From an uncultured candidate division Zixibacteria bacterium (GTDB lineage: Bacteria > Zixibacteria > MSB-5A5 > UBA10806 > 4484-95), in the NCBI GenBank assembly GCA_963668625.2, contig CAXXKA010000008.1, forward strand, positions 224,001 to 288,000: a DNA stretch of 64,000 nucleotides. Reading direction: 5' to 3'. The first letter of the stretch is position 1. Each line of letters starts with the position of its first letter. The position numbers were made by a program, and so were the translations under genes. The notes beneath the pieces were generated by a model. That model saw only the letters and a program-made list of their open reading frames with translations. It did no database searches and was not told the DNA's origin. This document shows positions 1-30,964 of the stretch, one piece after another.

Positions 1-2253
1 GGTATCATTGAATATTCTATCCTCTCCACACGGGCAGCTATCAATTAAATAGCCAGCAAATGAATTAAACCGCGGATCAGTATCGCAATAATCAATTGTC
101 ACCTGCATTGTTTGTGAAGTTGTAAATTTAATCCAAGATTCGGCGAAACCAATTGCAGAACAATCGTTCGTTGATCCGAGATTATTTCCTGTTATCGTAA
201 CTGGATTTTCAGAAACGAGAGTACCGGCATCAGTAGCGTTTTCACAATCATCATTTGCCGGTGGTGGCGGGCAGGTGACTCCTGTAATATTCAGTACGTA
301 ATCACCATTAAGGCTGCTGTTATTGAAAATCGGATAGTAGTAAGTTCCCACCGGTAATCCTAACCAGGTCAATTTCGTATTATCATCAGGGCAGCTCTCA
401 CTGGAATTATTGTCTATAGATTCATCACACGGGCATGATTGATACAAAGCCAAGTTCACATCGTAGTATTCAGCAGGTGGTGTAGTACCGCAGTAATCGA
501 TAGTGACATCCATGCGCTCATTGAGCGAGAATTTGACCCAAACCTCCGGATCATAATGATTATAGCAATCCTGAGTAGCGTTTTCATTATTGCCTGTAAG
601 CTGCACACTAACGCCGCTCTGTAAAGTCCCGGCATCCGTGGCATCTTCGCAATTATCATTTTCAAGTGGTGGCGGCGCTTCGCCTATAGTTAGCAAACCA
701 TCTCCGGCAACGCCGTTTCTCCCGCCAACTTCAATTAGGTATTGATTTCCTAGCTCAACAGAAAAATCAATCCTTGAATCTGAGGTACAACCTAACTCGG
801 CAGGCAAAGGTGAGCATGATGCGCCATCATACACAGCCATTTGATCTCTATACTCAGCGTCAATTGATAGCCTGGCATTCCCCGTGAAAGTAGCCGTATA
901 AACATACCATACATTTGGCGAACTCATACAATAGCCTTCACCATCAAATGTAGCCCCGCGAGTTGTGTATTCAAGTTCGTCAACCTCGCCAACGGCTAAG
1001 GCGTTTACACACTCATCATTTGCCGGCGGAGGTGGACATTCCTGGCCGGTTATACGAATAGTGTATTCCTCACTGTAAAGGGCATTGGTAAGAACCGGAT
1101 AATAATACGTTCCTGCAACAAGGCTTTCCCAGGTGTAGGACGGATTATAATTGCCGCAATCGCTTCGCTGATTGACATAGTATTGGTTATCGCAGGGACA
1201 TGAACCATATATGAACTCGGAAACGTTAGAATTGACATTTTCCGGATCAGCGCAGAAATCAATAGTAACGTCCATACATTCGGCTATCGTAAACTTAACC
1301 CAGACCTCGGGATCATAATGATTATAACAATCCTGAGTAGCACTTGTTACGGAACCGGTTATCAGGACAGTAGAATCTGCCAGAAGTGTTCCGGCATCAG
1401 TGGCATTCGCGCAATCATCATTGGGCGCGGGCGGCGGAGCTTCACCTATTGTCAGGAAGCCATCACCAACAGAGCTATATTGTCCACCGACTTCTATCAG
1501 GTACTGCTGTCCCATAATAACATCAAACTCAAACTGAGATTGAGATGTACAGCATAGCTGAGTGGGTAAGGGAGAGCAGGCATAACCATCATAAACCGCG
1601 AACTTTTTTTGATAGCCGGCTTCGATGCTTAACCTGGCTCTACCTGAGAAAGTAGGAGTATAAATATACCAGATATTCGGCGAACTTATACAACTACTTT
1701 CGCCATCGAATGACGCACCACGCGTGGTAAAAGCTAATTCGGATATCTCTCCAATAGCGCCGGCATTGGCACAATCATCATTAAACGGCGGTGGCGGACA
1801 ATCTTCACCGGTTATATTGACTATATAATTCTCGCCCATCATCCCCATTGCATCGATATAGTAATAGTAAGTACCTGCGGCAAGATTGTACCAGGTATAA
1901 ATCGGATTGTAATTATTACATTGATCCATAGCGATTGTCTGATGTTCTCCAAGGCAGGGACAATCATCATATACGATATTCGATGACATCATTATGTTAT
2001 CAGGGCTATCGCAGAAATCAATGGTAACATCCATGCAATCAGCAATCGTGAATTTAACCCAGACCTCATTTGTCATACACTCTGGAGTTGCATCAACAAC
2101 AGATCCTGACAATTGCTCGGTAACACCTGAAGTTAACGTACCGGCGTCTGTTGCATTGACACAATCATCATTTACAGGCGGATCAGCGAACGTCGCAACT
2201 GCAAAAACGGAGCATATTGCTGCTGTTAATATTAAGAGTAATTGTCTTTTCAT
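1..2253 (-). CDS. Secreted Cys-rich repeat protein ('NDDC.NA' domains), 5' part only; paralog of 23076..25895; runs off the left edge
   Basis: Not in the ORF track because it has no stop in the window. Manual translation from ATG 2253 (RBS GGGAGAGAGG): MKRQLLLILTAAICSVFAVATFA-DPPVNDDCVNATDAGTLTSG...EVWVKFTIADCMDVTIDFCD, collinear with the 939-aa protein. Confidence 0.88.
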   Translation of the reverse strand, partial: MKRQLLLILTAAICSVFAVATFADPPVNDDCVNATDAGTLTSGVTEQLSGSVVDATPECMTNEVWVKFTIADCMDVTIDFCDSPDNIMMSSNIVYDDCPCLGEHQTIAMDQCNNYNPIYTWYNLAAGTYYYYIDAMGMMGENYIVNITGEDCPPPPFNDDCANAGAIGEISELAFTTRGASFDGESSCISSPNIWYIYTPTFSGRARLSIEAGYQKKFAVYDGYACSPLPTQLCCTSQSQFEFDVIMGQQYLIEVGGQYSSVGDGFLTIGEAPPPAPNDDCANATDAGTLLADSTVLITGSVTSATQDCYNHYDPEVWVKFTIAECMDVTIDFCADPENVNSNVSEFIYGSCPCDNQYYVNQRSDCGNYNPSYTWESLVAGTYYYPVLTNALYSEEYTIRITGQECPPPPANDECVNALAVGEVDELEYTTRGATFDGEGYCMSSPNVWYVYTATFTGNARLSIDAEYRDQMAVYDGASCSPLPAELGCTSDSRIDFSVELGNQYLIEVGGRNGVAGDGLLTIGEAPPPLENDNCEDATDAGTLQSGVSVQLTGNNENATQDCYNHYDPEVWVKFSLNERMDVTIDYCGTTPPAEYYDVNLALYQSCPCDESIDNNSSESCPDDNTKLTWLGLPVGTYYYPIFNNSSLNGDYVLNITGVTCPPPPANDDCENATDAGTLVSENPVTITGNNLGSTNDCSAIGFAESWIKFTTSQTMQVTIDYCDTDPRFNSFAGYLIDSCPCGEDRIFNDT

Positions 2254-2353
2254 AGCCTCTCTCCCTATCCGTATTGCCAGGATCCCGCAATTCTATTTCT
2301 GGCACTACAAGGAAATTGTTTTTTCTGCATTAATTCGTTAAGCTTGCTTAGTA

Positions 2354-2428
2354 CCGGGAATACATTCCCGATAGTTCGTTCCTTTGCCGTCAGATAGTTT
2401 TAATCTGACGGCTTTTCATTACCTGACT
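2354..2428. promoter_or_regulatory. Conserved two-hairpin intergenic element (copy A)
   Basis: CGGGAAT/ATTCCCG stem, then GCCGTCAGAT/ATCTGACGGC stem, TTTT, then ACCTGACTT. Homologous to 13035-13120 and 25963-26043. Confidence 0.6.
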
Positions 2429-2485
2429 TACCTGTTGTTAAAATTTGCTGTTAAAACTAAAATTATCAGTTTCCTTGAAAACTTA

Positions 2486-4165
2486 CTATTTCAAAAGAAG
2501 CATTTGGTTGCTTATGGTAATGTCCGAGGTTTCGATACGATAGAAATACATACCCGAACTAACGACCTCACCGGAATTATCCGTGCCGTTCCAGGTCAAA
2601 TGATGAGTTCCAGCAGATAACGTACCGTTATAAAGCGTATTCACCCTGCGGCCCATGATATCGTAAATCGAAAGTACAATATCATCTTTTTGTTTTAGAG
2701 AGAACTGTATCGTGGTAGTAGCGTTGAATGGATTGGGATAGTTCTGCGCTAACGATACCATCACCGGTAATTTCTCCGTATCATCATCTACCGAAACAGT
2801 AGCGGCTTCCAGTTTGGCAATGAACACCTTACTGCGATCGTCCTCGTTCCAATATCCGCTACTATTATCCCACATTTGCGAGGAGACAAAGCCGGAGATC
2901 AGATAATTGCCATCATCAGCGAACTGCAAATCCCAAATTTCAATTGCCAGACTTCCCCATGAACTGTTAAGTTCCGGGAAATCATCTACATAAACCCGGG
3001 TGTAGGAACTGCCATCGTTGTTAACCTTCATAAGTATGGGCTCATAATGACGAGCGCCAACCATTGGATTCTCGGGAACAGGTTCATGAGCATATTGCTT
3101 GTTTCCGACTGAGATATATCCACTACCATCGGGGATTTCGCGCGCCGCGAAACAATAGGCAGCGGTATCCGGTACTCGGCCACCGCCGAGATAATCGGTA
3201 TAGTTAAATATTACCTCATTAAACTCGGAATCATATTTCATAACCGTATGGCAGGAGGAACGATCATATTCCCTGCCAAAATAGCGGCCGCCGATAAGAT
3301 ACTCACCATCGGATGTGATATGTATATCGTTAAACTCAGTCTCTTGCCTGCCGCAGACATTCGTCCAAACCGTATCACCATTGGCATCCAGTTTCATTAT
3401 GACTCCCCAGTCAGAGATATCATGTTCATCAGGATCAACATACTTGGTTTCTGCTCCGAGAATGAAACCGCCATCATCGGTGTTATCTGCGGCAAGGATA
3501 ATGAAATACTCATGATCCGGCAACGGTGAACAGTAATCTCTACACCAGACTTCGTCACCATCGGCATCGGCTTTTATGACAAATCCGGCTTCAGTATCGT
3601 TGTGCCCGTTGTAGCCAAATATAGCGTATCCGTCATCACCCGTATTAAGCAATTCATGTACGCGATAGACAGTGCTTTCTCCATAATAATTCGTCCAAAC
3701 GGTATCACCATAGGTATCTACTTTGTAAAGAAAAGCACCTTTGGAAAGTAATTGTCCATATTGATTTGTATAAAAGGCGAAACCAGCCAATACATAACCG
3801 CCATCTGAGGTTAAAACAACATCCCGGCCATAATATTCAAATGGAAGTTCCCAGCCGTACTGGCGCACCCACATCGTATCGAGGTTCTCATCAACTTTGA
3901 TAAGCATCGCTTTTGGAGGTTCACCGTCATTATCATAACAAACATTACCGGCAAAAATATAACCACCATCGGGAGTTTGTTTCATCGAGTAGCATTCGTA
4001 TTGGTCGATATCATCACCCTGGGAAAAATTATAAGTGTTGTACCAGATCACATCACCGAATTCGGCTTTGGCCGCTCCCGGTATCATCAACAACATCAGC
4101 AAAAATAATGATACTAAACCGATGCTTTTAATTGCCGTACCTGATTTTTTCTTTTGGTTTATCAT
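2486..4165 (-). CDS. Secreted beta-propeller-like repeat protein with T9SS-type-A/FlgD-like CTD
   Basis: Signal peptide, repeats of 'TxDGGY..AG...D..GDTxW', C-terminal LAQNYPNPFNATT...SGMYFYR. Start moved from 4198 to ATG 4165 (RBS AAAGGAG). Confidence 0.88.
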   Translation of the reverse strand: MINQKKKSGTAIKSIGLVSLFLLMLLMIPGAAKAEFGDVIWYNTYNFSQGDDIDQYECYSMKQTPDGGYIFAGNVCYDNDGEPPKAMLIKVDENLDTMWVRQYGWELPFEYYGRDVVLTSDGGYVLAGFAFYTNQYGQLLSKGAFLYKVDTYGDTVWTNYYGESTVYRVHELLNTGDDGYAIFGYNGHNDTEAGFVIKADADGDEVWCRDYCSPLPDHEYFIILAADNTDDGGFILGAETKYVDPDEHDISDWGVIMKLDANGDTVWTNVCGRQETEFNDIHITSDGEYLIGGRYFGREYDRSSCHTVMKYDSEFNEVIFNYTDYLGGGRVPDTAAYCFAAREIPDGSGYISVGNKQYAHEPVPENPMVGARHYEPILMKVNNDGSSYTRVYVDDFPELNSSWGSLAIEIWDLQFADDGNYLISGFVSSQMWDNSSGYWNEDDRSKVFIAKLEAATVSVDDDTEKLPVMVSLAQNYPNPFNATTTIQFSLKQKDDIVLSIYDIMGRRVNTLYNGTLSAGTHHLTWNGTDNSGEVVSSGMYFYRIETSDITISNQMLLLK

Positions 4166-4262
4166 TACGATTACTCCTTTGATTATTGTTACTTGCATTG
4201 AATTATTATTTTTACCATAATCGCTGATAAATTACTCCTTATCAACTAGCAATTTACCTCCC

Positions 4263-5201
4263 CTACTTCTTCAATCCTAATCTCATTATATACTCATCAT
4301 AATCTTCAGCTTGATTCCACAACGTCTCGAACAGAATTTTAAGAGATTTTGCCATCACCGGGTGACGAACGATTTGCGAGGTCGATTGAGGATTTCTCGG
4401 GACAGGATCGGATAATGAAAATATCGCGGCTTTTTCATCGAATATCGCCATTTTCATCGGCAACTCTTTCATGATCTTAATCCTCTCGCCGGACACGGCA
4501 TATTTATCTATGATATTTTCGAATAAAAACTTGTTTTCCGCTTCATCGGGTGATGGTTCATATATACATCTTACGACAAGACCCTTTTTAATAGCATTGG
4601 TACCGAATTTTACCTGTTGGTTTATTAAATTCTTACGTTTGAAATAAGTACCGGCCCTGTGCTTGACTAAAGATAATATCTCGGTCTCACTCTCATTTAC
4701 GAGCTGTTTGAATTTTCTTTCAACTTGAGTCGTATTTTTTAAAACTTCTATATAGTCAAGAACAAAATCCTTATCTTTATTTTCTTCATAGATTGGAGAA
4801 AGATTTTCAATTAACTTATCAACGTTCTTGATTTTTAATGTTAGGTTTTCTTTCTCCCGTTTTATGGTTAATTCGAGTTTATCTTTTTCTTTTTCAATCT
4901 CCTGCTCTAATTTTTCTCTTTTCAGCTTTATCTTTTCCTCCCCAATTCTCAGGAGAACGTCTTTAAGCTGCAAGGGGTCAACCGCAGAAAATAGTTTCTT
5001 TTTGCCTTTCACCACCTGGCATAATCCCTTATCCTCAAGTGATTTCAAATCATCATAAACACGCGTGCGAGGGATGTTGGCCAAACGGGCAATCTCAGTT
5101 GCCGATAGTTGCTTTTTTTGAAGAAGTGAGGTATATATCCCGACTTCGTAATTAGTGAGTCCTAATCCAACCAGACTACCAATTTCGAACTCATTAGCCA
5201 T
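4263..5201 (-). CDS. TrmB-family transcriptional regulator (copy 1)
   Basis: LGLTNYE...EIARLANIPRTRVYDDLKSLEDKGL wHTH, a coiled coil, and a C-terminal effector/PLD-like domain (LPMKMAIFD...FETLWNQA). Confidence 0.9.
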   Translation of the reverse strand: MANEFEIGSLVGLGLTNYEVGIYTSLLQKKQLSATEIARLANIPRTRVYDDLKSLEDKGLCQVVKGKKKLFSAVDPLQLKDVLLRIGEEKIKLKREKLEQEIEKEKDKLELTIKREKENLTLKIKNVDKLIENLSPIYEENKDKDFVLDYIEVLKNTTQVERKFKQLVNESETEILSLVKHRAGTYFKRKNLINQQVKFGTNAIKKGLVVRCIYEPSPDEAENKFLFENIIDKYAVSGERIKIMKELPMKMAIFDEKAAIFSLSDPVPRNPQSTSQIVRHPVMAKSLKILFETLWNQAEDYDEYIMRLGLKK

Positions 5202-5246
5202 TTCTTTTCTCTTTTCGCTTTAGTTAATCCGATGTCAGCATTTTTG

Positions 5247-5309
5247 TCGTACCCTTAATATTTTTATTCAGGTACGAATATAATATAGACAGAAATACTA
5301 TTGTGTCAA
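5247..5309 (-). promoter_or_regulatory. sigma70-type promoter and operator-like inverted repeat of TrmB copy 1
   Basis: TTGACA (5309-5304)-N16-TATATT (5287-5282); TCGTACC-N17-GGTACGA at 5247-5277. Confidence 0.7.
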
Positions 5310-5405
5310 GTAAAAACTATAACACGTTAATATACAATTAGTTCGGCGGCAGCCACAATCAAGACATGCTTAGGTCATACATATTTTAACCTATTTAAAT
5401 ATCAT

Positions 5406-5434: not shown

Positions 5435-5810
5435 TTCGTAGATCAAGGTCAAAGTGTTAGAGCACTTTCAAGAAGTAGTAGCTGAGTTTAATTACTCGAA
5501 TCAGGAGTTCATTCACAATTAGGCCAACCATCGGGAGCCTCGGCCGGTAAATCGCCGCTGCTTTGCCAGGTTGGCTCATAATCCGGGCAGAAATGTAATT
5601 CGTTCGCGCCCCGGAAATATTGCACCAGGTAAGTGACATCAGCGCCGATTACCGAACAATCACCGTTAGCATCAGCCGAATTATAGAAACCACCGACCAG
5701 ACACGGTGCGGCGATAGCCCGGAAATAGTTCACCAGGTAGGTGACATCCGCGCCGATTACATTCGGCGGCCACGAGCCGGCAGCCATGTTGGCATCACCG
5801 GGGAGGTAGT
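5411..5810 (-). repeat. Near-identical dockerin-like cassette plus 3' UTR (copy 1)
   Basis: DNA nearly identical to 10751-11148 and 16665-17063. The coding core also matches about 23172-23375. Confidence 0.9.
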
Positions 5811-7071
5811 CGTAGGTAGTAGTGATGTTACAGCCAGACCAACCGGTCTCTTCAACATAGTCGCCGCAAGTTGATCTAGGTCCCATCCAAGTACCCTGCA
5901 TCATTACTATACAGTCAAACTCCCATACATCATTATAACAGGTCATGCCGTTATCAAGGCAGCAAGCTCCGGTAGACGGTCCAGAGTTACATCCGGAATA
6001 GCCGTTCTCGAAATCGAATTCGCCGCATTCAGAATCCGCGTTCATCCAGGTGCCGTCGAGGATTACACAACTATCTTCTTCAATTTCGAAACAGGTCATG
6101 CCTTCATTAAGACAGCAAGCACCCGTAGGCGGTGTTACGGTACATCCGGAATAGCCGGTCTCCTCATCATATTCACCGCATTCGGAATCAGCGCCCATCC
6201 AGGTACCACGCAACATTACCAAACACTCGTTTTCTTCCACATCATTATAGCAGGTCATGCCGTTATCAAGGCAGCAAGCGCCCGTAGGTGGCGTTGAGTT
6301 ACATCCGGGATAACCGTTCTCAGGATCATATTCACCGCATTCGGAATCAGCGCCCATCCAGGTGCCACGCATTATCCCTATACACTCGTTTTCTTCCATA
6401 TCATTATAGCAGGTCATGCCGTTATCAAGGCAGCAAGCGCCGGTAGGTGGTGTTGAGTTACATCCGGGATAACCGTTCTCAGGATCATATTCACCGCATT
6501 CGGAATCAGCGCCCATCCAGGTGCCACGCATTATCCCTATACACTCGTTTTCTTCCATATCATTGTAACAGGTCATGCCATCATCTAGGCAGCAAGCGCC
6601 CGTAGGCGGTGTTATTGTACATCCGGAATAGCCGTTCTCCTCATCATATTCACCGCACTCGGAATCAGCGCCCATCCAGGCGCCGTTAAGGATTACACAA
6701 CTATCTCTTTCAACTTCGTAACAGGTCATGCCTTCTTCAAGGCAGCAAGCGCCGGTAGGTGGTGTTGAGTTACATCCGGGATAACCATTCTCAGGATCAT
6801 ATTCACCGCATTCGGAATCAGCGCCCATCCAGGTGCCCCTTAGAATATTTATGCAGTAATCTTCGGTGACAGCATTAGAACAATCCCAACCATCATCCAT
6901 ACAACAGGCACCAGTTGATTTTTGCCCGAATTGAATGGTTATATCCGATTCGAGGATTCCCCCGGCGTTTGCCTTGATAATACCTTCATTTGGCGTCATA
7001 TCAGCAATTACCACGGCAATACCGAAAAACCACAAGACACACACCAATAACAATAGTATTTTATTGCACAT
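5509..7071 (-). CDS. Secreted acidic Cys-rich protein: 7 GACC repeats (about 53 aa) plus C-terminal dockerin-like domain
   Basis: Signal peptide, seven GACC...TWM(G/N)...CG...GC units, tail YLPGDAN...ADVTYLVNYF...ADANGDCSVIGADVTYLVQYF. Confidence 0.88.
   Translation of the reverse strand: MCNKILLLLVCVLWFFGIAVVIADMTPNEGIIKANAGGILESDITIQFGQKSTGACCMDDGWDCSNAVTEDYCINILRGTWMGADSECGEYDPENGYPGCNSTPPTGACCLEEGMTCYEVERDSCVILNGAWMGADSECGEYDEENGYSGCTITPPTGACCLDDGMTCYNDMEENECIGIMRGTWMGADSECGEYDPENGYPGCNSTPPTGACCLDNGMTCYNDMEENECIGIMRGTWMGADSECGEYDPENGYPGCNSTPPTGACCLDNGMTCYNDVEENECLVMLRGTWMGADSECGEYDEETGYSGCTVTPPTGACCLNEGMTCFEIEEDSCVILDGTWMNADSECGEFDFENGYSGCNSGPSTGACCLDNGMTCYNDVWEFDCIVMMQGTWMGPRSTCGDYVEETGWSGCNITTTYDYLPGDANMAAGSWPPNVIGADVTYLVNYFRAIAAPCLVGGFYNSADANGDCSVIGADVTYLVQYFRGANELHFCPDYEPTWQSSGDLPAEAPDGWPNCE
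5830..6913 (-). repeat. Intragenic tandem repeat, about 156-159 bp unit, 7 copies
   Basis: Recurrent 'ttcaccgcattcggaatcagcgcccatccagg' and 'gcagcaagcgcc' blocks. Confidence 0.9.
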
Positions 7072-7380
7072 ACTATCCTCCTTAAATTAATAAGTCTGGT
7101 TAATCGTTCTGTTTTTAATAGTTTCCTGATCAAGGCCGGCTAACTTTAACCTGATTTCCGCAGCATGCCTTGATGAGATTAAAAATTGACTTTTCTTAGA
7201 CCTGATCGCCTCTTTTTGGGTTTTTAAGTTTTAGTTTGCTTATTGGTTCTCAATATATGTTTCTTGCCATTTTTTATTCTGCCCTTTTTCAAGCGGCAGC
7301 TTGGAATAAGTGCGCCGCCAACCTGCCGCCTTTACACTTTATCTTTAAGATAAAACCTTAAATATTTTTGTGTTGGATCG

Positions 7381-9576
7381 TTACTTCAATAATATCATCT
7401 TCCTTGTTTCCGAGATTTGAGGAGTAGTGATTTTATACAAGTATACACCTGATGATATATTGTTACCGTTGTTATTGCGGCCATTCCATATTAAGGAATG
7501 CTGACCAACCGGCATTGCTTCGATTGTTTTTGAATACACAAGCTGCCCCATAATGTTGTAGACATCAAAATCAACATCACATTGCCGGGGCAGGTCAAAC
7601 GATATCCGGGTAGTGGCATTAAACGGATTAGGATAATTCTGGGATAATGCAATACGGGACGGAACGGGTGAAGGTTCCGATGGTATATCGTTAACGCTCT
7701 CACCATAAACGGATATGCCTCCTTGCCAATGTCCCATATATTTTAAACTGTTGGTAGGATCTATCGTAAGGCATGTAATGTTTTCATCGCTTAAACCGGA
7801 GTTATTCATATGATAGGTATACCAGTTATTATCACTAAAACTCGCTAATCCTTTGAGTGTACCTACCCACATTGTGTCATTATAAAATTCTATTGCTTTA
7901 ATACGAGGATCCGGAATATCTGAGTTACCCGGGTGGTAAACAATTAAACTATCCCCATTAAAACAACCCAATCCACCAGACGACGCTCCTATCCAGAGAT
8001 CACCATCCGGCGCAAAAGCCAGACATTCGATGGATATTTCATGAACAATATCAGAATACTCCTGCCAATTAGTGCCGTCAAAAGAAGCTAATCCCATATA
8101 AGTTCCAAACCAGACCGTTCCATGAGCATCTATCGCAGTTGTATACACTTCATTACTGGGTAAAGCGGAATTTTCAGTATTGTAAATAGTCCAGTTCGTG
8201 TCATCAAAGTAGGCTACTCCGTTGTTTGTGGTTATCCATTTCGAACCATCTGTATCGACTATAATACAGAAAACATTTTCAGAAGGCAGCGGCGAGTTCG
8301 AAGATGTAAAATGAGTAATATTTAAACCCTCCATTTTTGTTAAACCGCCTGAGCCGTCCCACGAACTGGTTGAGCCAATCCAGGTAATATTGTCATCTTC
8401 AAAGGCAATCGTTTTTACAGAGTTAGCGCCATTAGCCAAAATTGAATCAGGGAAAATTACCCATTCGTCATTATTATTGAATTTAGCAAGGCCATCAGCA
8501 GTACCCGCCCAGATCCATCCATTATGATATTCAATCGCGTTCATCCCATTGGAAGGTAAGGAAGGACAGATACTGGTATTGTAAGATTCCCATTCCGTAT
8601 CGCCGTCAAAACTAACAACACCGCAACTTTTCGTGCCGATTAATATTTTACCATTAGCGGAACAGGTAATAGAGAAAATCTGGTTATCAGTTAATCCTGA
8701 ATTAGATGTGTTATACACTTCGTAATTCTCGCCATCAAAGCTGCCTATACCATTATGCATCATACCCATCCACTTTACATTATCATCATCAACATCCAGG
8801 CAATAAATCGTTCTAGGTATTCCGTAGCCATCGGCGTACGATGTAAAGGAGGATCCATCGAAAGAATACAAAATTGAATTTCCCCCACGACCACCGATTA
8901 ACCATAATAATGATTCACTATCTAGGGCAATTGAACTAAATCCGCCGAATTGGCTGAAGTTTGTCCAGTTGGTTCCATCGTAACGTGTTAATCCTTGATC
9001 CGATGCAACCCAGACAACATTTCCCGGTTGTGTTCTAATAGAATTTATTACACCGTTCAGTATTACAGAGTATGAAGAATCAAATACTTCCCAATCGGTA
9101 CCATCGTAAGTAAAAACGCTTTTACGTTCGGTTCCGATCCAGAGATTTCCGTTTTCGTCAACATCAAGGCAAGTTATTCTATCACCATAAGTAATTGGCG
9201 AATTCTCCGGGGTAAACACGGTCCAATCAGAATCATCATAGCGAATTAAGGCAGTCACTAATGAATCTCCTCCAGAAGCTACCCGGTAACTCGAGGCAAA
9301 CCACTTTACCCCGGAATCATCAACTGCAATATCAATGACCCTGTTATATTTAACCGGCGAGTTAGCTGCATTATAAAATTCCGTTTCGTGGGTGATACTG
9401 TTAATCTTAACCAGGCCTACTGATGTGCCGGCCCAGATAATATCGCCATCAACCGCCTGGCAATCTATATAGTCCCCATTCGTGTATTGCCGCCAATCGG
9501 GATATTGACCCATAACAGTATTTGGGCTAAGACTAAAAACGATGATAAGCGATAATAAACTCCAAAACACCTTCAT
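7381..9576 (-). CDS. Secreted beta-propeller protein (two-component-regulator-propeller/PorZ-like repeats) with T9SS-type-A/FlgD-like CTD
   Basis: Repeats of 'W..YNTxNSxLxxNxI..I..D..G..WxGT..GL..FDG'; C-terminal LSQNYPNPFNATT. Confidence 0.88.
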   Translation of the reverse strand: MKVFWSLLSLIIVFSLSPNTVMGQYPDWRQYTNGDYIDCQAVDGDIIWAGTSVGLVKINSITHETEFYNAANSPVKYNRVIDIAVDDSGVKWFASSYRVASGGDSLVTALIRYDDSDWTVFTPENSPITYGDRITCLDVDENGNLWIGTERKSVFTYDGTDWEVFDSSYSVILNGVINSIRTQPGNVVWVASDQGLTRYDGTNWTNFSQFGGFSSIALDSESLLWLIGGRGGNSILYSFDGSSFTSYADGYGIPRTIYCLDVDDDNVKWMGMMHNGIGSFDGENYEVYNTSNSGLTDNQIFSITCSANGKILIGTKSCGVVSFDGDTEWESYNTSICPSLPSNGMNAIEYHNGWIWAGTADGLAKFNNNDEWVIFPDSILANGANSVKTIAFEDDNITWIGSTSSWDGSGGLTKMEGLNITHFTSSNSPLPSENVFCIIVDTDGSKWITTNNGVAYFDDTNWTIYNTENSALPSNEVYTTAIDAHGTVWFGTYMGLASFDGTNWQEYSDIVHEISIECLAFAPDGDLWIGASSGGLGCFNGDSLIVYHPGNSDIPDPRIKAIEFYNDTMWVGTLKGLASFSDNNWYTYHMNNSGLSDENITCLTIDPTNSLKYMGHWQGGISVYGESVNDIPSEPSPVPSRIALSQNYPNPFNATTRISFDLPRQCDVDFDVYNIMGQLVYSKTIEAMPVGQHSLIWNGRNNNGNNISSGVYLYKITTPQISETRKMILLK

Positions 9577-10570: not shown

Positions 10571-10579
10571 TTTGAATTC

Positions 10580-10648: not shown

Positions 10649-10746
10649 GGAAATACTTATTAATTATTATAACATAATAAGTTACAGCATAATATTCAAA
10701 TAGGATTAACCAGATTTGACATATTTTCAGCAGATTATTTTAAGCT

Positions 10747-22775: not shown

Positions 22776-22836
22776 CTTTCACTTAGGTTTTCATTCGCTT
22801 TATTCATACTTTTATTGAAGGTCTCAACTTTTATTA

Positions 22837-22881
22837 ACCACTATATAGTGGTGAATATATAAAATGACGGAATAATGTCAA
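22837..22881 (-). promoter_or_regulatory. sigma70-type promoter and palindrome of TrmB copy 4
   Basis: TTGACA-N16-TATATT (22881-22854); perfect 16-bp palindrome ACCACTATATAGTGGT at 22837-22852. Confidence 0.75.
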
Positions 22882-22976: not shown

Positions 22977-23002
22977 AAAAAAGGCGGCCTTTCGACCGCC
23001 TT
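22977..23002 (-). terminator. Intrinsic terminator
   Basis: AAGGCGG-tcgaaagg-CCGCCTT followed by TTTT on the minus strand. Confidence 0.75.
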
Positions 23003-23075: not shown

Positions 23076-25895
23076 CTATTCACAGTTTGGCCAACCGGAG
23101 GGAGCATCAATTGGTAAATCCTCAGGTGTCGGCCAGGCAGTTTCGTAATCCGGGCAATATTGAAGATCACCAGCGCCTCGGAAATATTGCACCAGATAGG
23201 TAACATCAGCACCGATTACTGAACAGTCTCCGTTAGCATCAGCCGAATTATAGAAACCACCGACCAGACATGGCGCGGCGATAGCCCGGAAATAGTTCAC
23301 CAGGTAGGTGACATCCGCGCCGATTACATTCGGCGGCCACGAGCCGGCAGCCATGTTGGCATCACCGGGGAGGTATTCGTAAGTGTTGCCGTTAGTTGTA
23401 CCAAACAGGCAGAAAGCGAGATCGCCATAGACTTCGGATATTGTCCAGGCGCCATCGTCAATTTTATAGTAAGCGGTGGAACCGGTTTGAGAATCCGTGG
23501 TCAGCCAGTATGTCGGGGATGACTCTGTTCTGCAGGCCAGGGAATAGGTGCCCGCCGGCAATTCGATATCGAGATTATCTAATTGATAGGCATAGACAAT
23601 GAAACCCTCACCGTACTCATACCCGGTTGATACTCTAGTACAGGCCGCGCCGGTACTTTCATAAAGCACCTCACCCGGTACACCACCGTCATTAGCAATG
23701 ATTTGATAATCGGCGGCATCATTGAAATACGGTTCATTATAATTACTGGCTGCGCAGATAAATTTTACACTTTGCAGCGTGATATCCTCCGTGATAGTGA
23801 AATCATCGCAGGCATAGTATTCACCCCCATATTCAGTATCACGAAAAGATTCAACAGCACCTTCATAGTTAGGACCGCCATTTGTGTAGTAGGAGTCTTC
23901 GCAAGGATCAGGAATCCTGTCGATATCAAGAGTATAGCTCCCGCATTCAAAACCAGAGTAACTATCAATGGTTAGATAGTATATACCTGCCTCAAGTCCC
24001 GATACGAAAAGTTTATGATGCCCATTACCGCAATCAGCATCAATATAATTGATATCGTTTTCGCAGATTGAGGCGCCGAGATACACAGCGGACATCCACT
24101 GAGAAGCGCTATTGCAGAGAGAAAAATACCAATTGCCGGTAGTAGGGATAGTTACCTCATAAATCTGGTCTTCACCTTCATACTGAAGATAACAATCGTT
24201 GCCGGCACCGCATGTTGTACTCATTCCGGAGTAAGGCGCTGTAATAACAAAGTCCGGGTCCGGTGGTTCGGGGCAATCCACACCCGTAACATTTACTGTG
24301 TATGGTCCGCCTATACCGTTTGTTGCCCAAACTGGATAGTAGTAAGTTCCCGGTTGAATATCGTACCAGACGAAAACGGGATTATTGTTTTCGCAACTGG
24401 ATGATTGTGATGGAAACAAATAATTATAACAATCGCAGTCGGTGTGCAAATTTTGAGAAGCTTGCCAAATACTACTATTATCATCACAGTAATCTATAGT
24501 AACGTTCATACAGGATTCAACCGTGAATTGTATCCAAACCTCTGAAAACATATTAACATCACAATCCAGCGTCGCGCCGGTGCTGTTACCTGTATACTGA
24601 ACCGGAACACCTGATTGAAGCGTACCACCATCATCGGCATCCGTACAGTCATCATTAGAAGGGGTATCAGGCGCTTCATTTATTGTTAGTCTACCATTGC
24701 CTGATGAACCATCCTGGCTACCGATCTCTATCAGGTATTGCTGACCTGTCACAACATCAATATCGAATCGTGTTTCACTGGTACAGCCAAGTTCTGTTGG
24801 TAATGGTGAGCAGCTATAGCCATCATAAACCGCCATTTGGATATTGAACATAGTTTCGCTGAGCTCTATAAGAGCGGTACCGGTAAATGATGGTGTGTAA
24901 ACGAACCAGATATTCGGCCCCTCGCTAATGCAGTTGCCGCTGCCATCGTATACCGCGCCGCGAGTGGAAAAATCTAATTCCGAGACCTCGCCTATAGCAG
25001 CAGCGTCACCGCAATCATCGTTATCGGGAAGTAAGGGGCAGTCTGTACCGGTAACATTTACAGTATAATCCCCCTCGGAAATTATAGGATAGTAATACGT
25101 ACCGGCTTCCAAGTTATACCAGGTCAATGAGGGATTTCCCATCATGCCACAGTAAGTTAAATTATTATTTTCAAGTGCGCCACCGCAGGGGCATTCGCTA
25201 TACAACTGATTGATGTAACTATAAACCATATTCATATCATCACAGTAGTCAATCGTAACATCCATACAGGAGGTGATCGTAAATTTAATCCAGACCTCAG
25301 GATTCCAGAGTTCCCCACAGTCTTGCGTCGCACTAATTGCACTACCACTGAGTTGTTCACTCTGATCGGCGACAAGGGTACCGGCATCCGTAGCGTCTTC
25401 GCAATCATCATTTTCCGGAGGCGGCGGGCAGTCAACGCCGGTAATGTTGACTACGTAGGAACCGGCTTTCCCGTCATTGTCTTCTATGGAATAATAGTAT
25501 GTGCCTGCTTGCAAACCATTCCAGGTTAGCGATGGGCTATCATTTGAAGAGCAGATACCCCATTCGCTGGCATATGATGCGTTGTTACAGGGACATCCAC
25601 CATATACTATCGATGATGAACTAGTTGGATTGCTAGGATCATCGCAGAAATCGATAGTAACATCCATGCAGGATTCGATAGTGAATTTAACCCAGACCTC
25701 AGGCACAGAATCCTCTCCACAATCATCTGTGGCATCTATTGTAGTTCCACTAAGTTGTTCAGTTTCACCAGCCACAAGAGTTCCGGCGTCGGTCGCGTAG
25801 GCGCAGTCATCATTGGGTGGCGGATCCGCTAATACACCAACAGGCAATAAACAACACAAGGTTAAAATCAACGTTAGAATTAAAGCTTTTTTCAT
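23076..25895 (-). CDS. Secreted Cys-rich multidomain protein ('NDDC.DA' domains) with dockerin-like tail
   Basis: Signal peptide; repeated PPxNDDC..A.DAGTL...EVWxKFT..CMDVTIDxCD...GTYYY domains; YLPGDANMAAGSWPP tail. Confidence 0.88.
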   Translation of the reverse strand: MKKALILTLILTLCCLLPVGVLADPPPNDDCAYATDAGTLVAGETEQLSGTTIDATDDCGEDSVPEVWVKFTIESCMDVTIDFCDDPSNPTSSSSIVYGGCPCNNASYASEWGICSSNDSPSLTWNGLQAGTYYYSIEDNDGKAGSYVVNITGVDCPPPPENDDCEDATDAGTLVADQSEQLSGSAISATQDCGELWNPEVWIKFTITSCMDVTIDYCDDMNMVYSYINQLYSECPCGGALENNNLTYCGMMGNPSLTWYNLEAGTYYYPIISEGDYTVNVTGTDCPLLPDNDDCGDAAAIGEVSELDFSTRGAVYDGSGNCISEGPNIWFVYTPSFTGTALIELSETMFNIQMAVYDGYSCSPLPTELGCTSETRFDIDVVTGQQYLIEIGSQDGSSGNGRLTINEAPDTPSNDDCTDADDGGTLQSGVPVQYTGNSTGATLDCDVNMFSEVWIQFTVESCMNVTIDYCDDNSSIWQASQNLHTDCDCYNYLFPSQSSSCENNNPVFVWYDIQPGTYYYPVWATNGIGGPYTVNVTGVDCPEPPDPDFVITAPYSGMSTTCGAGNDCYLQYEGEDQIYEVTIPTTGNWYFSLCNSASQWMSAVYLGASICENDINYIDADCGNGHHKLFVSGLEAGIYYLTIDSYSGFECGSYTLDIDRIPDPCEDSYYTNGGPNYEGAVESFRDTEYGGEYYACDDFTITEDITLQSVKFICAASNYNEPYFNDAADYQIIANDGGVPGEVLYESTGAACTRVSTGYEYGEGFIVYAYQLDNLDIELPAGTYSLACRTESSPTYWLTTDSQTGSTAYYKIDDGAWTISEVYGDLAFCLFGTTNGNTYEYLPGDANMAAGSWPPNVIGADVTYLVNYFRAIAAPCLVGGFYNSADANGDCSVIGADVTYLVQYFRGAGDLQYCPDYETAWPTPEDLPIDAPSGWPNCE

Positions 25896-25962
25896 GTTTG
25901 ATCTCCTTAAGAAATTAAGGACTTGATTACTTCCAATTTAGTTGTTAGTTTTAATGAAGCGT

Positions 25963-26043
25963 CGGAATTAAAATCCCGCCGCGATTCTTTTGGGCTGTCA
26001 GGTGAACTCACCTGACAGTTTTTTTGCCTGATTTTCCTGGTTA
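25963..26043. promoter_or_regulatory. Conserved two-hairpin intergenic element (copy E)
   Basis: CGGAATT/AATCCCG imperfect stem; CTGTCAGGTGA-ac-TCACCTGACAG; T7 run; GCCTGATTTTCCTGGTTA. Confidence 0.6.
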
Positions 26044-26240: not shown

Positions 26241-29200
26241 CTATTTTATCAGCAGCATTTTTTGGGTCTCAGTAAATTCGCCGGCTTGTATCTTATAGAA
26301 ATAGATACCGGATGAAACATCCGAGGCATCCCAAATTGCGGAATGGCGACCGGCACCCAGTCGTCCCGATACTAAATTGTCAACCTCCTGCCCTAGCATA
26401 TTGTAAATGACTAACTCGACATCGCTATCATGAGGTAAAGCGAACTCGATTAATGTCTGGGCGTTGAACGGATTGGGATAGTTATGAGCCAGGTTGTAGC
26501 TTGTCGGCAATTCATTACCGTGATCATCGAATATACCGGTCTGAAGGTCGAGGGTAACCGGCACGCTGATCGGATCGAGAGCTATGTTCACATCATTGGA
26601 GGCGATATAAAGGTTACCCTGGTAAATCCTCGGATCAAGACTGGTAGCATCCAGGTTGATATCGACTGTAATCTGGCTTCCGGCCGGAACGGTTCCACTT
26701 GCAGGCTCGGCATAAAGCCATGGCATCTGAATCAGTGTGGCCAGGCCGCTATATGCATAGTTATCACAGTATGCTACCTGCGAGGCGATTTCTCCGGTTC
26801 CATTTTGTATACCTGTGATCATTGAGGCCACCGGACCTTGCATGTCTTCATACTGGAAAAGTATCCGGCCGTCAGAGTATAGAATTACTTGGAATGTGTA
26901 GTATGGGCCGAAATTAATCAAATCCATGTAATTAAGGTCACTCCAGGTAATCACGGCCATATCGTCGTCAGCATACCAGGTGATCTTGGATGATTCGTTA
27001 ACATTTAAGTTGAAATCTGACCAGAAAGGGGCTACTACATTTTTAGGCAAATCTTCGTTAGGGATCCCCGGAAGCAGCCCACCTGAGCCGCGAGGGTATA
27101 GCTCGCTGTCGGTAAAAGAGATATAACCTGTTGAGGAGACATATAAAGAATTGAACATTTGACCATAGAAAGGAAATTCAAACTCCAGTTGAAGCGGCCC
27201 TGTTATTTCGAGAGTATTTAAATTTAACTCCTGATGTAAGGCAGGGCTTACCCAGCTGTACTCAGGACCATGAATTTCATCCGAATCGATCCAGACATAA
27301 CCGAATTCATCAGGACCGTTGTAACCCATTACCCTCGGGAGATCGTCTGCGTTATAAGACAGGGATGTTTGACCTGCGCTCAGGTTCGGCCGTTCAAGAT
27401 AATCAACATCGGCAGCTCTTCTTTCAAGGTTGATATTATTTATAGTAGTCGGCATTATGGTAAAGTCGACATCGAGATCACCGTCATTGGTCAGGGTAAG
27501 CTGGGTCGTATATATATCACCCGAGGTAGTATCCATCTGAATAGATTCTCTGTCGACAACCAATTGCCCGCCGGAGGCCGGAGTAGCTGAAACCTCAATG
27601 GCGGGTTCTGATTCAACAATCTCATCGCCGGTGTCATAAGCAGCAGTTACAGCATAGTAGTAAGTTGTGCCGTTACTAACATCTTCATCGTTATATGAAG
27701 TCTCGGTCGTTTGTTCAACAATCCGGTTGCTTTCAGTAATGTCTACATTTGGTTGGGTATCACGGTAGATATTGTAGCCTAAGAAGTCAGCCTCCAGGGT
27801 TGAGGCAATAAGCGGATTTTCAGGATCAGGATCATTGATAGTCAGAACAGTATTAATGGTGTGGGTTCTGATACTGGCACGGATCATCATATCTCCCTGG
27901 TCCGCGTACGCACCTGGTTCATGGTGCCAGATGTCCGCTTCATCGCGCCACCACATCTTTGCGATATGATTTGCCCTTCTATCCTGGCCGAGGAAATCAT
28001 AATTGAATTGGCTATCACTGATGTTATTAAACGAAACCCAAAACTTTTCAGTCTCAATTATAATGGGCGGATCGAAAACATGAAAAATCCATTCACCGTA
28101 ATTAGCGATATCGGTAATATCGGCAAGCATGTTACCGGGAGAACCATCACCGGCATCATCGAAAACTTTAATCTGTACCGAATCGTGAACAGGGTAAACC
28201 ATTTCTCCCCAGCCGGCATCGCCTGCAGTGGGAACATGAACGAAAACCGTACAAACCTGAATAGGAGGCAAGGCTTCGAATTCCATAGCATGCAAATTAT
28301 CCGAATCATAAAATCCCGCTCCACAGTTACCATCATCATAGGCCAGCAATGTACATGGAGGGGTTCCCGGTTCATACCAGTGCAAGGGTACAACATTATT
28401 CTGGTCGTTTGCCGTACTCAATTCGATTGGCGGCAGGAATTCAGCCCATACCTCAAAATCAACTGTCAGCGTGTCGTTGAAATTGTTTTCATCCGTAACG
28501 AGAGAACTTACAGCCGTTAAGATATATGTGCCTTGAGTAATGGGGGCGTATTCGGGAAATGTAATATCAGTTATGGCGTTAGACTCCAGATCGTTGATGA
28601 TTTGGGTTTCAGCATACACAATGGCATCGTTAAACGATATTGTTAAACTCACATCGAAAGAAGCCGACTGGGCGCCCATGTTGTCAAATGTAACTACCGG
28701 CGCAAACGGTTCGGATACCTGCAACACGCCGATCGGCGCCGTAAATGCCCTCGGCATCACATCATAATCTAAAAGAGGTTCAGGGTAAATAAGGATGGCC
28801 ATATTGTCATGAATGTATTCTTCCCAATATGCTATTTCCAGGCCATCAGTACCATCGATATTTTCAATGCCAATAGTTGATTGCTCGAGATGTCCGAATT
28901 CACCGGGATCCATAGAACCGTATTGGAGAAGGATTTTACCATCAGGATAGAGTATAGCCTGAAAATTAAGCGCGCCGTTGTGCCAAAATAGAGGCACGCC
29001 TTCATATGACACTATAAAACGATTGCCGGGCTCATCATAGTAATAGTAGATATGCCCATAACCTTCCATATCGTAAGGAGATATCCCCAGGTTATTCCAT
29101 AAAATAGCAATAAAATTATTAGGAGATCTATTGTACGGAATCATCATATTAACCGGGGAAAATATATCAGTATCAAAAACCAGACATCCATCCTCGACAA

Positions 29201-29510
29201 TGCCAACAGTTTCATAAGTATTGTTATAGAAAGGAAAACTAAAACCGATATAATACGGTCCATTGTATTCATCCACCTGGGTTATAATTTCTGTTCCTAT
29301 TTCAGAAATATCAACCCATTCATATTCCGGTCCCCACGATTCGTCGGAATCAATCCAGCGATAGCCGAATAAATCTGGGCCGTTAAAATCATTAACTACC
29401 GGTAAATCTGTCGATTCTTGAACGACAACGTTCTCACCAGCCAAAGCGCCTGATATTGCCAGTACAACAATAATTAAGGCGGTTACCAAAAGCTTTCCTG
29501 ATTTACTCAT
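26241..29510 (-). CDS. Large secreted protein: two 'GPDxFGYxWIDSD' domains, Ig/FN3-like domains, T9SS-type-A-like CTD
   Basis: Signal peptide; duplicated GPD(L/E)FGYxWIDSDE...FQxILYxDGxILxQY domain; FN3-like GYNIYRD...YYYAVTA; LAHNYPNPFNAQT. Confidence 0.88.
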   Translation of the reverse strand: MSKSGKLLVTALIIVVLAISGALAGENVVVQESTDLPVVNDFNGPDLFGYRWIDSDESWGPEYEWVDISEIGTEIITQVDEYNGPYYIGFSFPFYNNTYETVGIVEDGCLVFDTDIFSPVNMMIPYNRSPNNFIAILWNNLGISPYDMEGYGHIYYYYDEPGNRFIVSYEGVPLFWHNGALNFQAILYPDGKILLQYGSMDPGEFGHLEQSTIGIENIDGTDGLEIAYWEEYIHDNMAILIYPEPLLDYDVMPRAFTAPIGVLQVSEPFAPVVTFDNMGAQSASFDVSLTISFNDAIVYAETQIINDLESNAITDITFPEYAPITQGTYILTAVSSLVTDENNFNDTLTVDFEVWAEFLPPIELSTANDQNNVVPLHWYEPGTPPCTLLAYDDGNCGAGFYDSDNLHAMEFEALPPIQVCTVFVHVPTAGDAGWGEMVYPVHDSVQIKVFDDAGDGSPGNMLADITDIANYGEWIFHVFDPPIIIETEKFWVSFNNISDSQFNYDFLGQDRRANHIAKMWWRDEADIWHHEPGAYADQGDMMIRASIRTHTINTVLTINDPDPENPLIASTLEADFLGYNIYRDTQPNVDITESNRIVEQTTETSYNDEDVSNGTTYYYAVTAAYDTGDEIVESEPAIEVSATPASGGQLVVDRESIQMDTTSGDIYTTQLTLTNDGDLDVDFTIMPTTINNINLERRAADVDYLERPNLSAGQTSLSYNADDLPRVMGYNGPDEFGYVWIDSDEIHGPEYSWVSPALHQELNLNTLEITGPLQLEFEFPFYGQMFNSLYVSSTGYISFTDSELYPRGSGGLLPGIPNEDLPKNVVAPFWSDFNLNVNESSKITWYADDDMAVITWSDLNYMDLINFGPYYTFQVILYSDGRILFQYEDMQGPVASMITGIQNGTGEIASQVAYCDNYAYSGLATLIQMPWLYAEPASGTVPAGSQITVDINLDATSLDPRIYQGNLYIASNDVNIALDPISVPVTLDLQTGIFDDHGNELPTSYNLAHNYPNPFNAQTLIEFALPHDSDVELVIYNMLGQEVDNLVSGRLGAGRHSAIWDASDVSSGIYFYKIQAGEFTETQKMLLIK

Positions 29511-29678: not shown

Positions 29679-30557
29679 TTAAGCATGGAAAACATCCATC
29701 GGGGTGGCCTTTTCCCAAAAGGATTCAAACAGATTAACAAAGGTGTTTGCTAAATCAGGATGCTCGGTTATTAGACAGGTTACCGATGATTTCCCCGCAA
29801 CGGGATCGACAAGCTTATAAAGTACTTTTTTCCGGTCAAAAACCTGCATTCCGATGGGCAAATTATCGATTTCTCGATCTTTAATATTGCCATAGGAATA
29901 ATCGAGCTTTTTCGCGAGGGGAAGATACTCGTTCTTGGCAGTTGAATCCCAGATATTGCGTGAAATAACACCTCTTTGAGTTGCTTCATCGTTTACTTTT
30001 TTTAATTCCTCCACTATCGCTTTAGGTGCTTTTTTAAAAATAAATGGAGGTTTTGTAAACTCTAAAACTTCCTTTTGAGCCTCATTGCTCAGCTCAATGA
30101 ATTTGCGAAGAATTTGAAGTGGGTCCTTAAGAACTATCATGTATTCAAGAGGACTGCTGTTAGCGCGGTTCGTTTTATAAAGTGATTTGAGATCGCTAAT
30201 CATGTTATCCCGCTCTCCCTGGATCGATTTTTTATTTTTCATAATTAGCTTTCTCTTATTATCCAGTTCCTTCAGCTCGGTTTCCAGAGGATCATCAATA
30301 ACCTCAATTGACTTCTCCCAGAGCAGATTGGGATCTGCGACCGTGTACCTTTTTATTTCTCCGGGGATCAACACACTCAATCCCTTGGCCATAAGCTTGG
30401 CAACAGCCTCATAAGCGCTAGGCCTCGGTATTCCGGCCAGTTTCGATATCTCGCTGACAGTCAGCGATTCCCTTTCAAACAGTCCCAGATAACATTTGGC
30501 TTCGTATTCGGTAAACCCCATTTTCTTTATCATTTCTATGTACGATGAGCGGTTCAT
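29679..30557 (-). CDS. TrmB-family transcriptional regulator (copy 5, first gene of the array)
   Basis: MGFTEYEAKCYLGL...GIPRPSAYEAVAKL; LPIGMQVFD...FESFWEKA. Confidence 0.9.
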   Translation of the reverse strand: MNRSSYIEMIKKMGFTEYEAKCYLGLFERESLTVSEISKLAGIPRPSAYEAVAKLMAKGLSVLIPGEIKRYTVADPNLLWEKSIEVIDDPLETELKELDNKRKLIMKNKKSIQGERDNMISDLKSLYKTNRANSSPLEYMIVLKDPLQILRKFIELSNEAQKEVLEFTKPPFIFKKAPKAIVEELKKVNDEATQRGVISRNIWDSTAKNEYLPLAKKLDYSYGNIKDREIDNLPIGMQVFDRKKVLYKLVDPVAGKSSVTCLITEHPDLANTFVNLFESFWEKATPMDVFHA

Positions 30558-30583
30558 TAATATTTCTCCTATCTTATTGTAGG

Positions 30584-30637
30584 TGTAGCTCTATTAAGCC
30601 TACAGCTACAGTATATTAAAATATTTCAATTTGTCAA
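30584..30637 (-). promoter_or_regulatory. sigma70-type promoter and inverted repeat of TrmB copy 5
   Basis: TTGACA-N16-TATACT (30637-30610); TGTAGCT-N13-AGCTACA at 30584-30610. Confidence 0.68.
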
Positions 30638-30964
30638 GAAAAAGTTAATACTTGTTTGTAGTTAGCATTATTTAACTAAAGTCTTAATTGACTTGCCATT
30701 ATGAAAAATAGACAGAGGTTTTCGGCGAAATAAAGCTAATTTATTGCAGCAAATGGAGTTTCTTTGGAGTAGCGTAATCCCGCATAATAGACCTCATAAT
30801 TTATATATCATAATGTATAACCCTCTCGGCTTTTAAGCTTTCCGGCATGGATGGGGGTGCTTGTTGTTGAGTTTAAGCCGCTTGAGATTGGAAATCCATT
30901 CGTGGTAGCCCTCGTTTTGTTCGGTCAATTCTTCAATGAGCTTACCCGCTATAATTAGATGTCA

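Follow-up and report, generated by a model that had tools for sequence, protein, structure and literature searches.

We describe here a repeated regulator and cargo module in a 64,000-nucleotide stretch of DNA from an uncultured Zixibacteria bacterium (G000:C8:224001-288000, where G000 is the source genome and C8, C10 and C4 are contigs of it; hereafter the window). Each unit of the module comprises a gene for a TrmB-family regulator, then a gene for a protein with the C-terminal domain (CTD) that serves as the tag of type IX secretion systems (T9SS), then a gene for a Cys-rich protein with a dockerin-like tail. The window array contains exactly five such units. The observation is real, non-random and larger than first described, and the associated sequence patterns make it moderately probable, in our judgment, that these units constitute a bank of surface-display operons that repress themselves through largely separate operators. 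All of the parts belong to known families. Their combination was not found described in the literature searched (titles and the starts of abstracts, most subscription papers and supplements being outside the scope).

A genome-wide bank of TrmB-led units

The sequence-only reading of this DNA had described a five-fold, fixed three-gene order on the minus strand, and all 15 open reading frames (ORFs) were found as described. The five slot-1 proteins score 66-73 bits against the PF01978 (TrmB) cut-off of 25.6, and the five slot-2 proteins all exceed the cut-off of TIGR04183, the T9SS type A tail. The fifth dockerin tail, placed outside the window by that reading, was reached by leftward extension: unit 5 ends at window position -449 with the same tail and terminator, no further unit follows, and transposase-like ORFs lie beyond, so that the array is exactly five units. 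On the upstream side of unit 1 there is a transposase-like fragment, itself repeated. The features of the array are as follows.

30578..30637, minus: unit 1 sigma-70 promoter and palindromic operator over -10/+1 (predicted)
29679..30557, minus: TrmB1, TrmBL2-type regulator, recognition helix RPSAY
26241..29510, minus: unit 1 slot 2, 1089 residues, with a signal peptide, regions resembling NIDO and Fn3/Ig (below cut-off) and a T9SS type A tail
25942..26040, minus: unit 1 leader, box AAATCAGG at 26027-26034, then two covarying hairpins
23076..25895, minus: unit 1 slot 3, 939 residues, four NDxC beta-sandwich repeats (one over the PF23759 cut-off), dockerin tail
22981..23002, minus: unit 1 intrinsic terminator
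22832..22881, minus: unit 2 promoter and predicted operator, CACCAC..GTGGT class
21855..22775, minus: TrmB2, helix RGRIY, TrmBL2 match over full length
19433..21772, minus: unit 2 slot 2, 779 residues, NDxC-type cargo and T9SS tail, of a family common to unit 3 slot 2 and three other units
19075..19082, minus: unit 2 leader box, with a miniature inverted-repeat transposable element (MITE)-like element (~256 bp, 19108-19363) immediately upstream
16765..18969, minus: unit 2 slot 3, 734 residues, 12 GxCC modules, dockerin tail
16661..17064, minus: unit 2 copy of the homogenised ~400-bp repeat (dockerin tail, 3' untranslated region (UTR), terminator)
5407-5808, 10747-11147, 23078-23393 (partial) and one past the window's left end, minus: other copies of this repeat
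15592..16564, minus: unit 3 promoter (16537-16564) and TrmB3, helix RTRIY
13166..15529, minus: unit 3 slot 2, NDxC-type cargo and T9SS tail
13019..13117, minus: unit 3 leader, box 13104-13111 and hairpins
10848..13013, minus: unit 3 slot 3, an unnamed N-domain and then 7 GxCC modules (162-bp tandem repeats), ending in the dockerin tail
9617..10650, minus: unit 4 promoter, predicted operator (10580-10616) and TrmB4 (RQNTY; 9617-10570)
7381..9576, minus: unit 4 slot 2, 731 residues, Reg_prop beta-propeller, PorZ-like (below the PorZ cut-off), T9SS tail
7150..7157, minus: unit 4 leader box
5509..7071, minus: unit 4 slot 3, 520 residues, 7 GxCC modules, dockerin tail (AlphaFold2 (AF2) model dockerin-like)
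4263..5310, minus: unit 5 promoter, predicted operator (5247-5277) and TrmB5 (RTRVY; 4263-5201)
2486..4198, minus: unit 5 slot 2, SBBP-like propeller (below cut-off) and T9SS tail, of the same family as the three CTD genes of unit C10:413378
2337..2435, minus: unit 5 leader, box 2422-2429 and hairpins
1..2253, minus: unit 5 slot 3, 900 residues in total, with five NDxC repeats; it runs on to -449, its tail and terminator lying beyond the window

Because the annotated GTG start of TrmB3 at 16557 overlaps the TrmB3 promoter, translation probably begins at the ATG at 16467 instead.

Profiles built from the window genes identify 16 TrmB, 218-222 CTD and 71 dockerin-tail ORFs in the genome. Thirteen of the 16 TrmB genes belong to a cassette with a near-identical tail: the five of the window, a tandem of three at C10:413378-436210 and five that stand singly, one of which is flanked by a 166-bp direct repeat (73% identical; G000:C10:398689-398854 and 406102-406267). 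Nine of the 13 cassettes carry one intact CTD gene and one a frameshifted copy; one carries two, one carries three, and one has the order CTD, CTD, TrmB, dockerin (C-C-T-D). The triplet is thus fixed within the window but not elsewhere, and the fixed protein pairs originally proposed are too strict a description. The three TrmB genes without a cassette likewise lie 5' of CTD or dockerin genes. Overall, the next co-oriented gene encodes a CTD or dockerin protein for 15 of 16 TrmB genes, while for the 3143 other genes the number is 198 (binomial p 1e-17). This adjacency is beyond chance rather than the random placement that had been raised as a counter-case; the sixteenth TrmB gene is followed by a frameshifted CTD gene. 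Conversely, 12 of the genome's 16 CTD-to-dockerin gene pairs are found inside TrmB units.

TrmBL2-like regulators with exchanged domains

The regulators are composed of a winged helix, a long helix and a phospholipase D (PLD)-like domain, and have no sugar-binding subdomain. TrmB2 matches TrmBL2 over residues 6-280 (phmmer E 6e-16), and the closest Foldseek match of its model is again TrmBL2 (E 5e-19), followed by PLD/Nuc folds (Nuc 1BYR, E 2e-7). Despite this fold match the proteins fall below the cut-off of the TrmBL2 equivalog NF041141 (40-65 bits against 530). Sugar-sensing regulators of the TrmB/TrmBL1 type were rejected on architecture: the window proteins are ~290-320 residues long rather than the expected ~340, PF11495 is below cut-off in two of the five and absent from three, and the TrmB/TrmBL1 equivalogs match the N-terminus only. 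The earlier proposal that each unit has its own ligand sensor is accordingly unproven, given a full-length match to TrmBL2 and a missing sugar-binding subdomain.

Active PLD/Nuc enzymes carry an HxK(x4)D motif. The alignment of the TrmB C-domains shows a P-x-K-x4-D strand that retains the Lys and Asp of this motif. Since an invariant Pro replaces the catalytic His, the domain is probably not an enzyme. The C-domains are diverse (median 32% identity) with their invariant residues retained.

Trees of the N- and C-terminal halves of the regulators conflict with strong support. The N-half of TrmB3 clusters with those of two C10 paralogs (96-98), its C-half with that of TrmB4 (99); TrmB5 switches partner in the same manner (98, 99); and a G006 protein has an N-half 79% identical to one paralog and a C-half 86% identical to a G012 protein. 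As judged from these conflicts, the DNA-binding and C-terminal halves have been swapped between TrmB paralogs. Approximately unbiased tests reject each half's tree on the other half, a type of test that rejects easily on short alignments, and the case for swapping is therefore made on the named conflicts, with one row (L027) having a frameshifted C-half. The window TrmBs are spread over several clades of the tree rather than forming one.

Promoters and predicted operators

Each unit was originally thought to open with a promoter, and this stands. Within window 13000-31000 the top three sigma-70 matches (11 of 12) are the promoters of TrmB1-3, TrmB4 and TrmB5 have equivalent ones, and a TTGACA/TATATT-type promoter precedes 15 of the 16 TrmB genes in the genome; none of the 13 spacers before the tail gene has a sigma-70-like promoter. 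The region just downstream of the -10 element contains a palindrome scoring at least 8 at 12 of 16 TrmB sites; among the other AT-rich promoter-like sites (253) the share is 13% (p 2e-7). These palindromes differ unit by unit, and in 7 of 12 units the palindrome is present at the unit's own promoter only. Among the 22 promoters of 36 that could be classified, the operator class tracks position 3 of the RxxxY helix, with R or K accompanying an inward ACYAC..GTRGT arrangement (10/10) and N, S or C an outward GTnGT..ACnAC arrangement (12/12), related proteins sharing labels so that a p-value for this association is overstated. That the predicted operators follow the recognition helix argues for specific DNA binding over non-specific chromatin binding.

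The same TrmB subfamily is present in Chloroflexota and Actinomycetota. An ACCAC..GTGGT site lies at most 80 nt upstream, inside the promoter, in 41 of 69 TrmB homolog loci, mainly from these two phyla, as against 17 of 3364 control windows. The helices of the Chloroflexota and Actinomycetota homologs are nearly all RQRIY or RQRVY, and the site resembles that of the window RGRIY protein. An S8 peptidase gene lies 3' of TrmB in at least 20 of the 71 loci not titled Zixibacteria or 'uncultured bacterium' (33 plausible co-oriented downstream ORFs of these loci were scanned, of which 20 are S8 peptidases). It thus seems that heading secretion operons is general in the subfamily. As a separate observation, loci L037-L108 (Chloroflexota, Actinomycetota) have an RQRIY-type TrmB with a predicted ACCAC..GTGGT operator in the promoter spacer, often 5' of a secreted S8 peptidase.

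These features bear on a different explanation of the regulators, namely that they are ligand-independent dose limiters acting by negative feedback, with a C-domain that only oligomerises as in TrmBL2, so that all units are on but capped and the coat is constitutive and mixed. The full-length TrmBL2 match without a sugar-binding subdomain, the very strong promoters ahead of large secreted cargo and the position of the subfamily 5' of S8 proteases are all in keeping with this idea. It sits less well with C-domains that are diverse yet keep invariant residues and have apparently been swapped independently of the DNA-binding half, and differing inputs would more readily explain why 13 units have separate operators. 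We consider it unlikely.

Cargo, docking tail and export

All intact cargo proteins have hydrophobic N-termini and no internal membrane segment. The slot-3 proteins are acidic, contain 4.8-10.5% Cys and end in a near-identical ~100-residue C-terminal tail; as whole proteins they have no Pfam match. The NDxC repeats resemble galactose-binding-like PF23759 and PPC domains, the GxCC modules match no family, and an atlas search with the slot-2 C-proximal domain gave scores only up to 0.85. No catalytic family was detected on the 10 window cargo proteins or the 21 domain pieces scanned. A cellulosome, which is defined by dockerin-borne glycoside hydrolases on a multi-cohesin scaffoldin, was rejected for this window cargo without a catalytic family.

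The tail was originally described as dockerin-like, and a dockerin fold is supported by modelling. The AF2 model is a duplicated loop-helix repeat (predicted local distance difference test score 94), the top 20 Foldseek matches shown are all dockerin-containing, and the tail profile matches a PDB dockerin at E 5e-4. Twelve of 22 aligned tails match PF00404 at E up to 1 (best 4.6e-6), the window's own tail not being among them.

T9SS-like machinery and cohesin scaffolds, suggested as things to look for by the sequence-only reading, are both present in the genome, in which SprA, PorU, PorV and cohesin domains exceed their cut-offs and several cohesins sit on CTD proteins. Complex prediction for the tail with a 279-residue cohesin-CTD protein, which carries one of at least eight cohesin-like domains, weighs neither way (score 0.05, mark 0.32). 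Separately, the beta-helix protein encoded at L139 5357-8083 combines two cohesin-like domains and a T9SS tail with an internal segment that resembles a dockerin of another type.

A leader box before the tail gene

The spacer before the tail gene contains a leader box, RARTCAGG (GGAAATCAGG-type), in 12 of 13 units. Among genes with enough spacer, the box occurs before 9 of 51 other dockerin genes, 6 of 140 CTD genes, 0 of 15 TrmB genes and 56 of 1489 other genes, and it recurs 5' of tail genes in relatives. Two hairpins lie 3' of the box, with two-sided changes in 7 of 14 pairs (nine leaders picked for clear hairpins); a terminator-like hairpin is found in one of the 13 spacers. In two cases the box is downstream of a sigma-70-like promoter, which favours a role at the RNA level, for example in processing and stabilisation. 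A two-part alternative-sigma promoter was rejected, there being no second conserved element at fixed spacing. The genome has CsrA, one NusG and one RNase E/G, and CsrA binding or RNA processing may take place at the box. For a NusG-paralog mechanism there was no candidate gene in the genome with the NusG query used, and Rfam gave no meaningful match in window 1-35000.

The leader box also accompanies another group of dockerin genes, similar to one another in their tails, that have no TrmB (G000:C4:50372, C4:99734, C10:269756 and C8:324650). The MITE-like element beside the unit 2 box has CACTAGTGTCCGG-type inverted ends and apparent target duplications, and matches the genome 82 times over at least 230 nt.

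Homogenisation of the tail and probable turnover of units

Among the 13 units the TrmB proteins are 35% identical, with 0.70 of four-fold sites different, the CTDs are 47% identical (12 compared) and the first NDxC domains 51% (7 compared). The tails are 97% identical in amino acids and 93% in nucleotides, with 0.18 of four-fold sites different. The ~400-bp repeat has a sharp edge at the dockerin and extends across the 3' UTR as far as the terminator. The earlier statement that the complete units end in a dockerin-like tail and a terminator applies to all five units, with the qualification that the 3' half of the unit 1 tail and 3' UTR is divergent. G006 has a separate homogenised version of the tail (88% amino acid identity, 5 tails). 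By these measures of divergence the units are old and the tail homogenised. Recent tandem duplication of one unit is ruled out by the TrmB divergence and the multi-clade tree.

Contigs from public runs (three runs, one sample) break only inside the shared tail (23248-23360), and since the roughly tenfold summed depth is confined to this tail the repeat is real. In run X1, unit 1 up to the tail forms one contig, and the 3' part of the tail through unit 2 slot 2 another; the link between units 1 and 2 across the tail rests on the assembly, as run contigs do not span it.

A tail-only relic precedes the C10 array, directly 5' of a TrmB promoter (G000:C10:412500-412900; L143 14000-14400), and is a pseudogene remnant of a slot-3 gene. 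It retains a single GxCC end, a tail in which the two internal repeats have merged into one, and a terminator. This relic, and the presence of a homogenised tail and terminator on old units, suggest recombination at the shared tail. One slot-2 family is also paired with different slot-3 types.

Active cassette shuffling would account for several of these features. Units would be cut out and inserted through crossovers at the tail they share, the population would vary, and TrmB would keep the mobile unit self-contained. This would fit the sharp-edged repeat at the same end of 13 divergent units, the two head-to-tail arrays of unrelated units, the tail relic, the mixed slot-2 and slot-3 pairings, and the transposase remnants flanking the window array, along with an integrase-like fragment 5' of one unit. 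Comparison of the flanks of the 13 cluster ends, however, revealed no dedicated recombinase or att-like site common to the units, ordinary gene conversion explains the homogeneity and acts also on dockerin genes outside units, and the run contigs contain no unit-skipping joint, though that stretch had only one tail. We regard active shuffling as quite improbable. An integron or shufflon cassette array was rejected on the basis of the same flanks and because units carry their own promoters.

The units might alternatively be a hitch-hiking block of regulator and secreted genes in near-neutral birth and death, with most units redundant or decaying. One frameshifted CTD gene, the relic tail, broken TrmB or cargo genes in relatives and a copy number in G000 far exceeding that of relatives could be read in this way, but the intact frames of 12 of 13 units, combined with saturated four-fold sites, imply long-term selection, as do the matched operator-helix pairs and covarying leader hairpins. 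This possibility we rate as very improbable.

Relatives

TrmB is found in 19 of 285 genomes of the phylum, and in 14 of 23 relatives in the two closest families. At most eight candidates were scored per genome, so that TrmB copy numbers are lower bounds; the source genome has far more copies than its relatives. The synteny proposed by the sequence-only reading extends to 6 of 15 relatives examined (L003, L011, L015, L019, L024 and L027), which have the order TrmB, one or more CTD genes, dockerin (T-C(n)-D); L011 has a split tail gene, and in L019 two units stand in tandem. The other relatives have T-D, T-C, or T before IPTL-CTERM-tail proteins (TIGR04174 on both L006 proteins), which suggests that sorting tails have been exchanged. 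IPTL-CTERM-like tails are seen on proteins 3' of TrmB in L006, L012, L013 and L016, and L012 has GxCC/NDxC cargo.

Proposed mechanism

A mechanism for the bank of autorepressed display operons can be outlined as follows. A strong sigma-70 promoter would drive TrmB, the CTD gene or genes and the dockerin gene as one operon to the shared terminator. From the covariation of helix and palindrome, TrmB would bind the palindrome over its own -10/+1 region and repress its own unit, and different recognition helices would read different operators, so that the units would be largely separately controlled. In what is the weakest step, the degenerate PLD-like C-domain might bind a small signal, other than a TrmB-type sugar, that lifts repression. 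By family knowledge, slot-2 proteins would leave through the T9SS, and slot-3 dockerins would plug into cohesins on T9SS-tagged scaffolds to form a surface coat or set of adhesins that can be adjusted. At the RNA level, the leader box and hairpins may set the amount of the slot-3 protein. Finally, the sequence pattern points to recurrent recombination or conversion at the tail that would keep one docking specificity while adding, stacking and deleting units, and to recombination inside trmB that would reassort operator specificity against the C-domain.

Several observations weigh against this reading. Five of the 12 palindromes have short arms with other genomic matches, 14 of the 36 promoters are unclassed by the simple rule and kin are not independent, and two units have the identical helix RGRIY, making cross-talk possible. 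TrmBL2 itself, the closest relative with a solved structure, which likewise lacks a sugar-binding domain, is described as an abundant, largely non-specific chromatin protein (PMC4158304, PMC4877046). The best Foldseek E-value for the tail is only 0.017, and the window's own tail has no Pfam dockerin match. The slot-3 proteins have no T9SS tail to account for a passage across the outer membrane, and could stay periplasmic. The leader box is without a fixed second element. Near-identical tails are also present in dockerin genes outside units (up to 100% amino acid identity), and a distance-dependent recombination test over 30 informative tail sites was not significant (p 0.42).

A bolder version, which we hold to be rather doubtful, is a recombination-fed combinatorial display in which self-contained cassettes move, stack and are lost through crossover at the uniform dockerin tail, PLD-fold one-component sensors swap domains and so reassort operator specificity and ligand input, and dockerin cargo lacking a T9SS tail exits bound to cohesin-CTD carriers. 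If true, it would represent a new sensor-domain class, a natural orthogonal repressor set and a hitch-hiking route through the T9SS.

Neighbouring genes

Upstream of unit 1 (region 30950-33110) lies a lone BNR-repeat CTD gene (31638..33110) followed by a short signal-peptide ORF, apparently truncated by the transposase-like fragment. Genes for heme o synthase and then alternative complex III-like proteins (a molybdopterin/Fe-S fusion, NrfD-like) lie within 34699-49800. At 50365-52491 there is a 708-residue dockerin-tail gene outside the TrmB units, the tail of which is more divergent.

Comparison with known systems

Polysaccharide utilisation loci in Bacteroidota consist of a regulator plus SusC/SusD, and cellulolytic clostridia have a sigma-I/RsgI bank. 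Both resemble the present system in having many paralogous regulators, each tied to an exported set, and conserved slots with variable contents. Here, in contrast, there is no transporter, membrane sensor or sigma factor, but a cytoplasmic one-component repressor (predicted) in the same operon, and the shared part is a docking tail apparently kept uniform by recombination.

TrmBL2 of Thermococcales (PDB 5BPD, 5BOX, 5BPI, 5BQT) has the same full-length architecture without a sugar-binding subdomain. It differs in being described as an abundant, largely non-specific chromatin protein (PMC4158304, PMC4877046), whereas here there are 16 bacterial paralogs leading secretion operons, their promoters bearing unit-specific predicted palindromes. 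Candidatus Stygibacter (Cloacimonadota) has a proposed cellulosome-like complex, also non-clostridial, in which signal-peptide proteins end in dockerins and the cohesin scaffold has an attachment domain at its C-terminus. The dockerin cargo in that complex consists of enzymes and the main text does not mention TrmB (PMC8542988), whereas here no catalytic domain was found and the units are predicted to be self-regulated. The cip-cel operon, which includes dockerin proteins, has intergenic stem-loops, with selective RNA processing and stabilisation that, in the account of it, suggests stoichiometry control (PMC4423207); in the present case two hairpins precede the last gene, with a conserved 8-10 nt box 5' of them and no Rfam family match.

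Implications

Beyond the sequence-only reading, the analysis adds the genome-wide bank, the predicted operator code, the apparent domain swaps, the homogenisation of the tail and the leader box. The system offers 16 natural candidate repressor-operator pairs with a simple helix code. A bacterial TrmBL2-like subfamily of several phyla would gain a job, as the local autorepressor of secretion operons at predicted operators, and cohesin-dockerin display outside the clostridia would have a readable regulatory logic, in a phylum known only from genomes.

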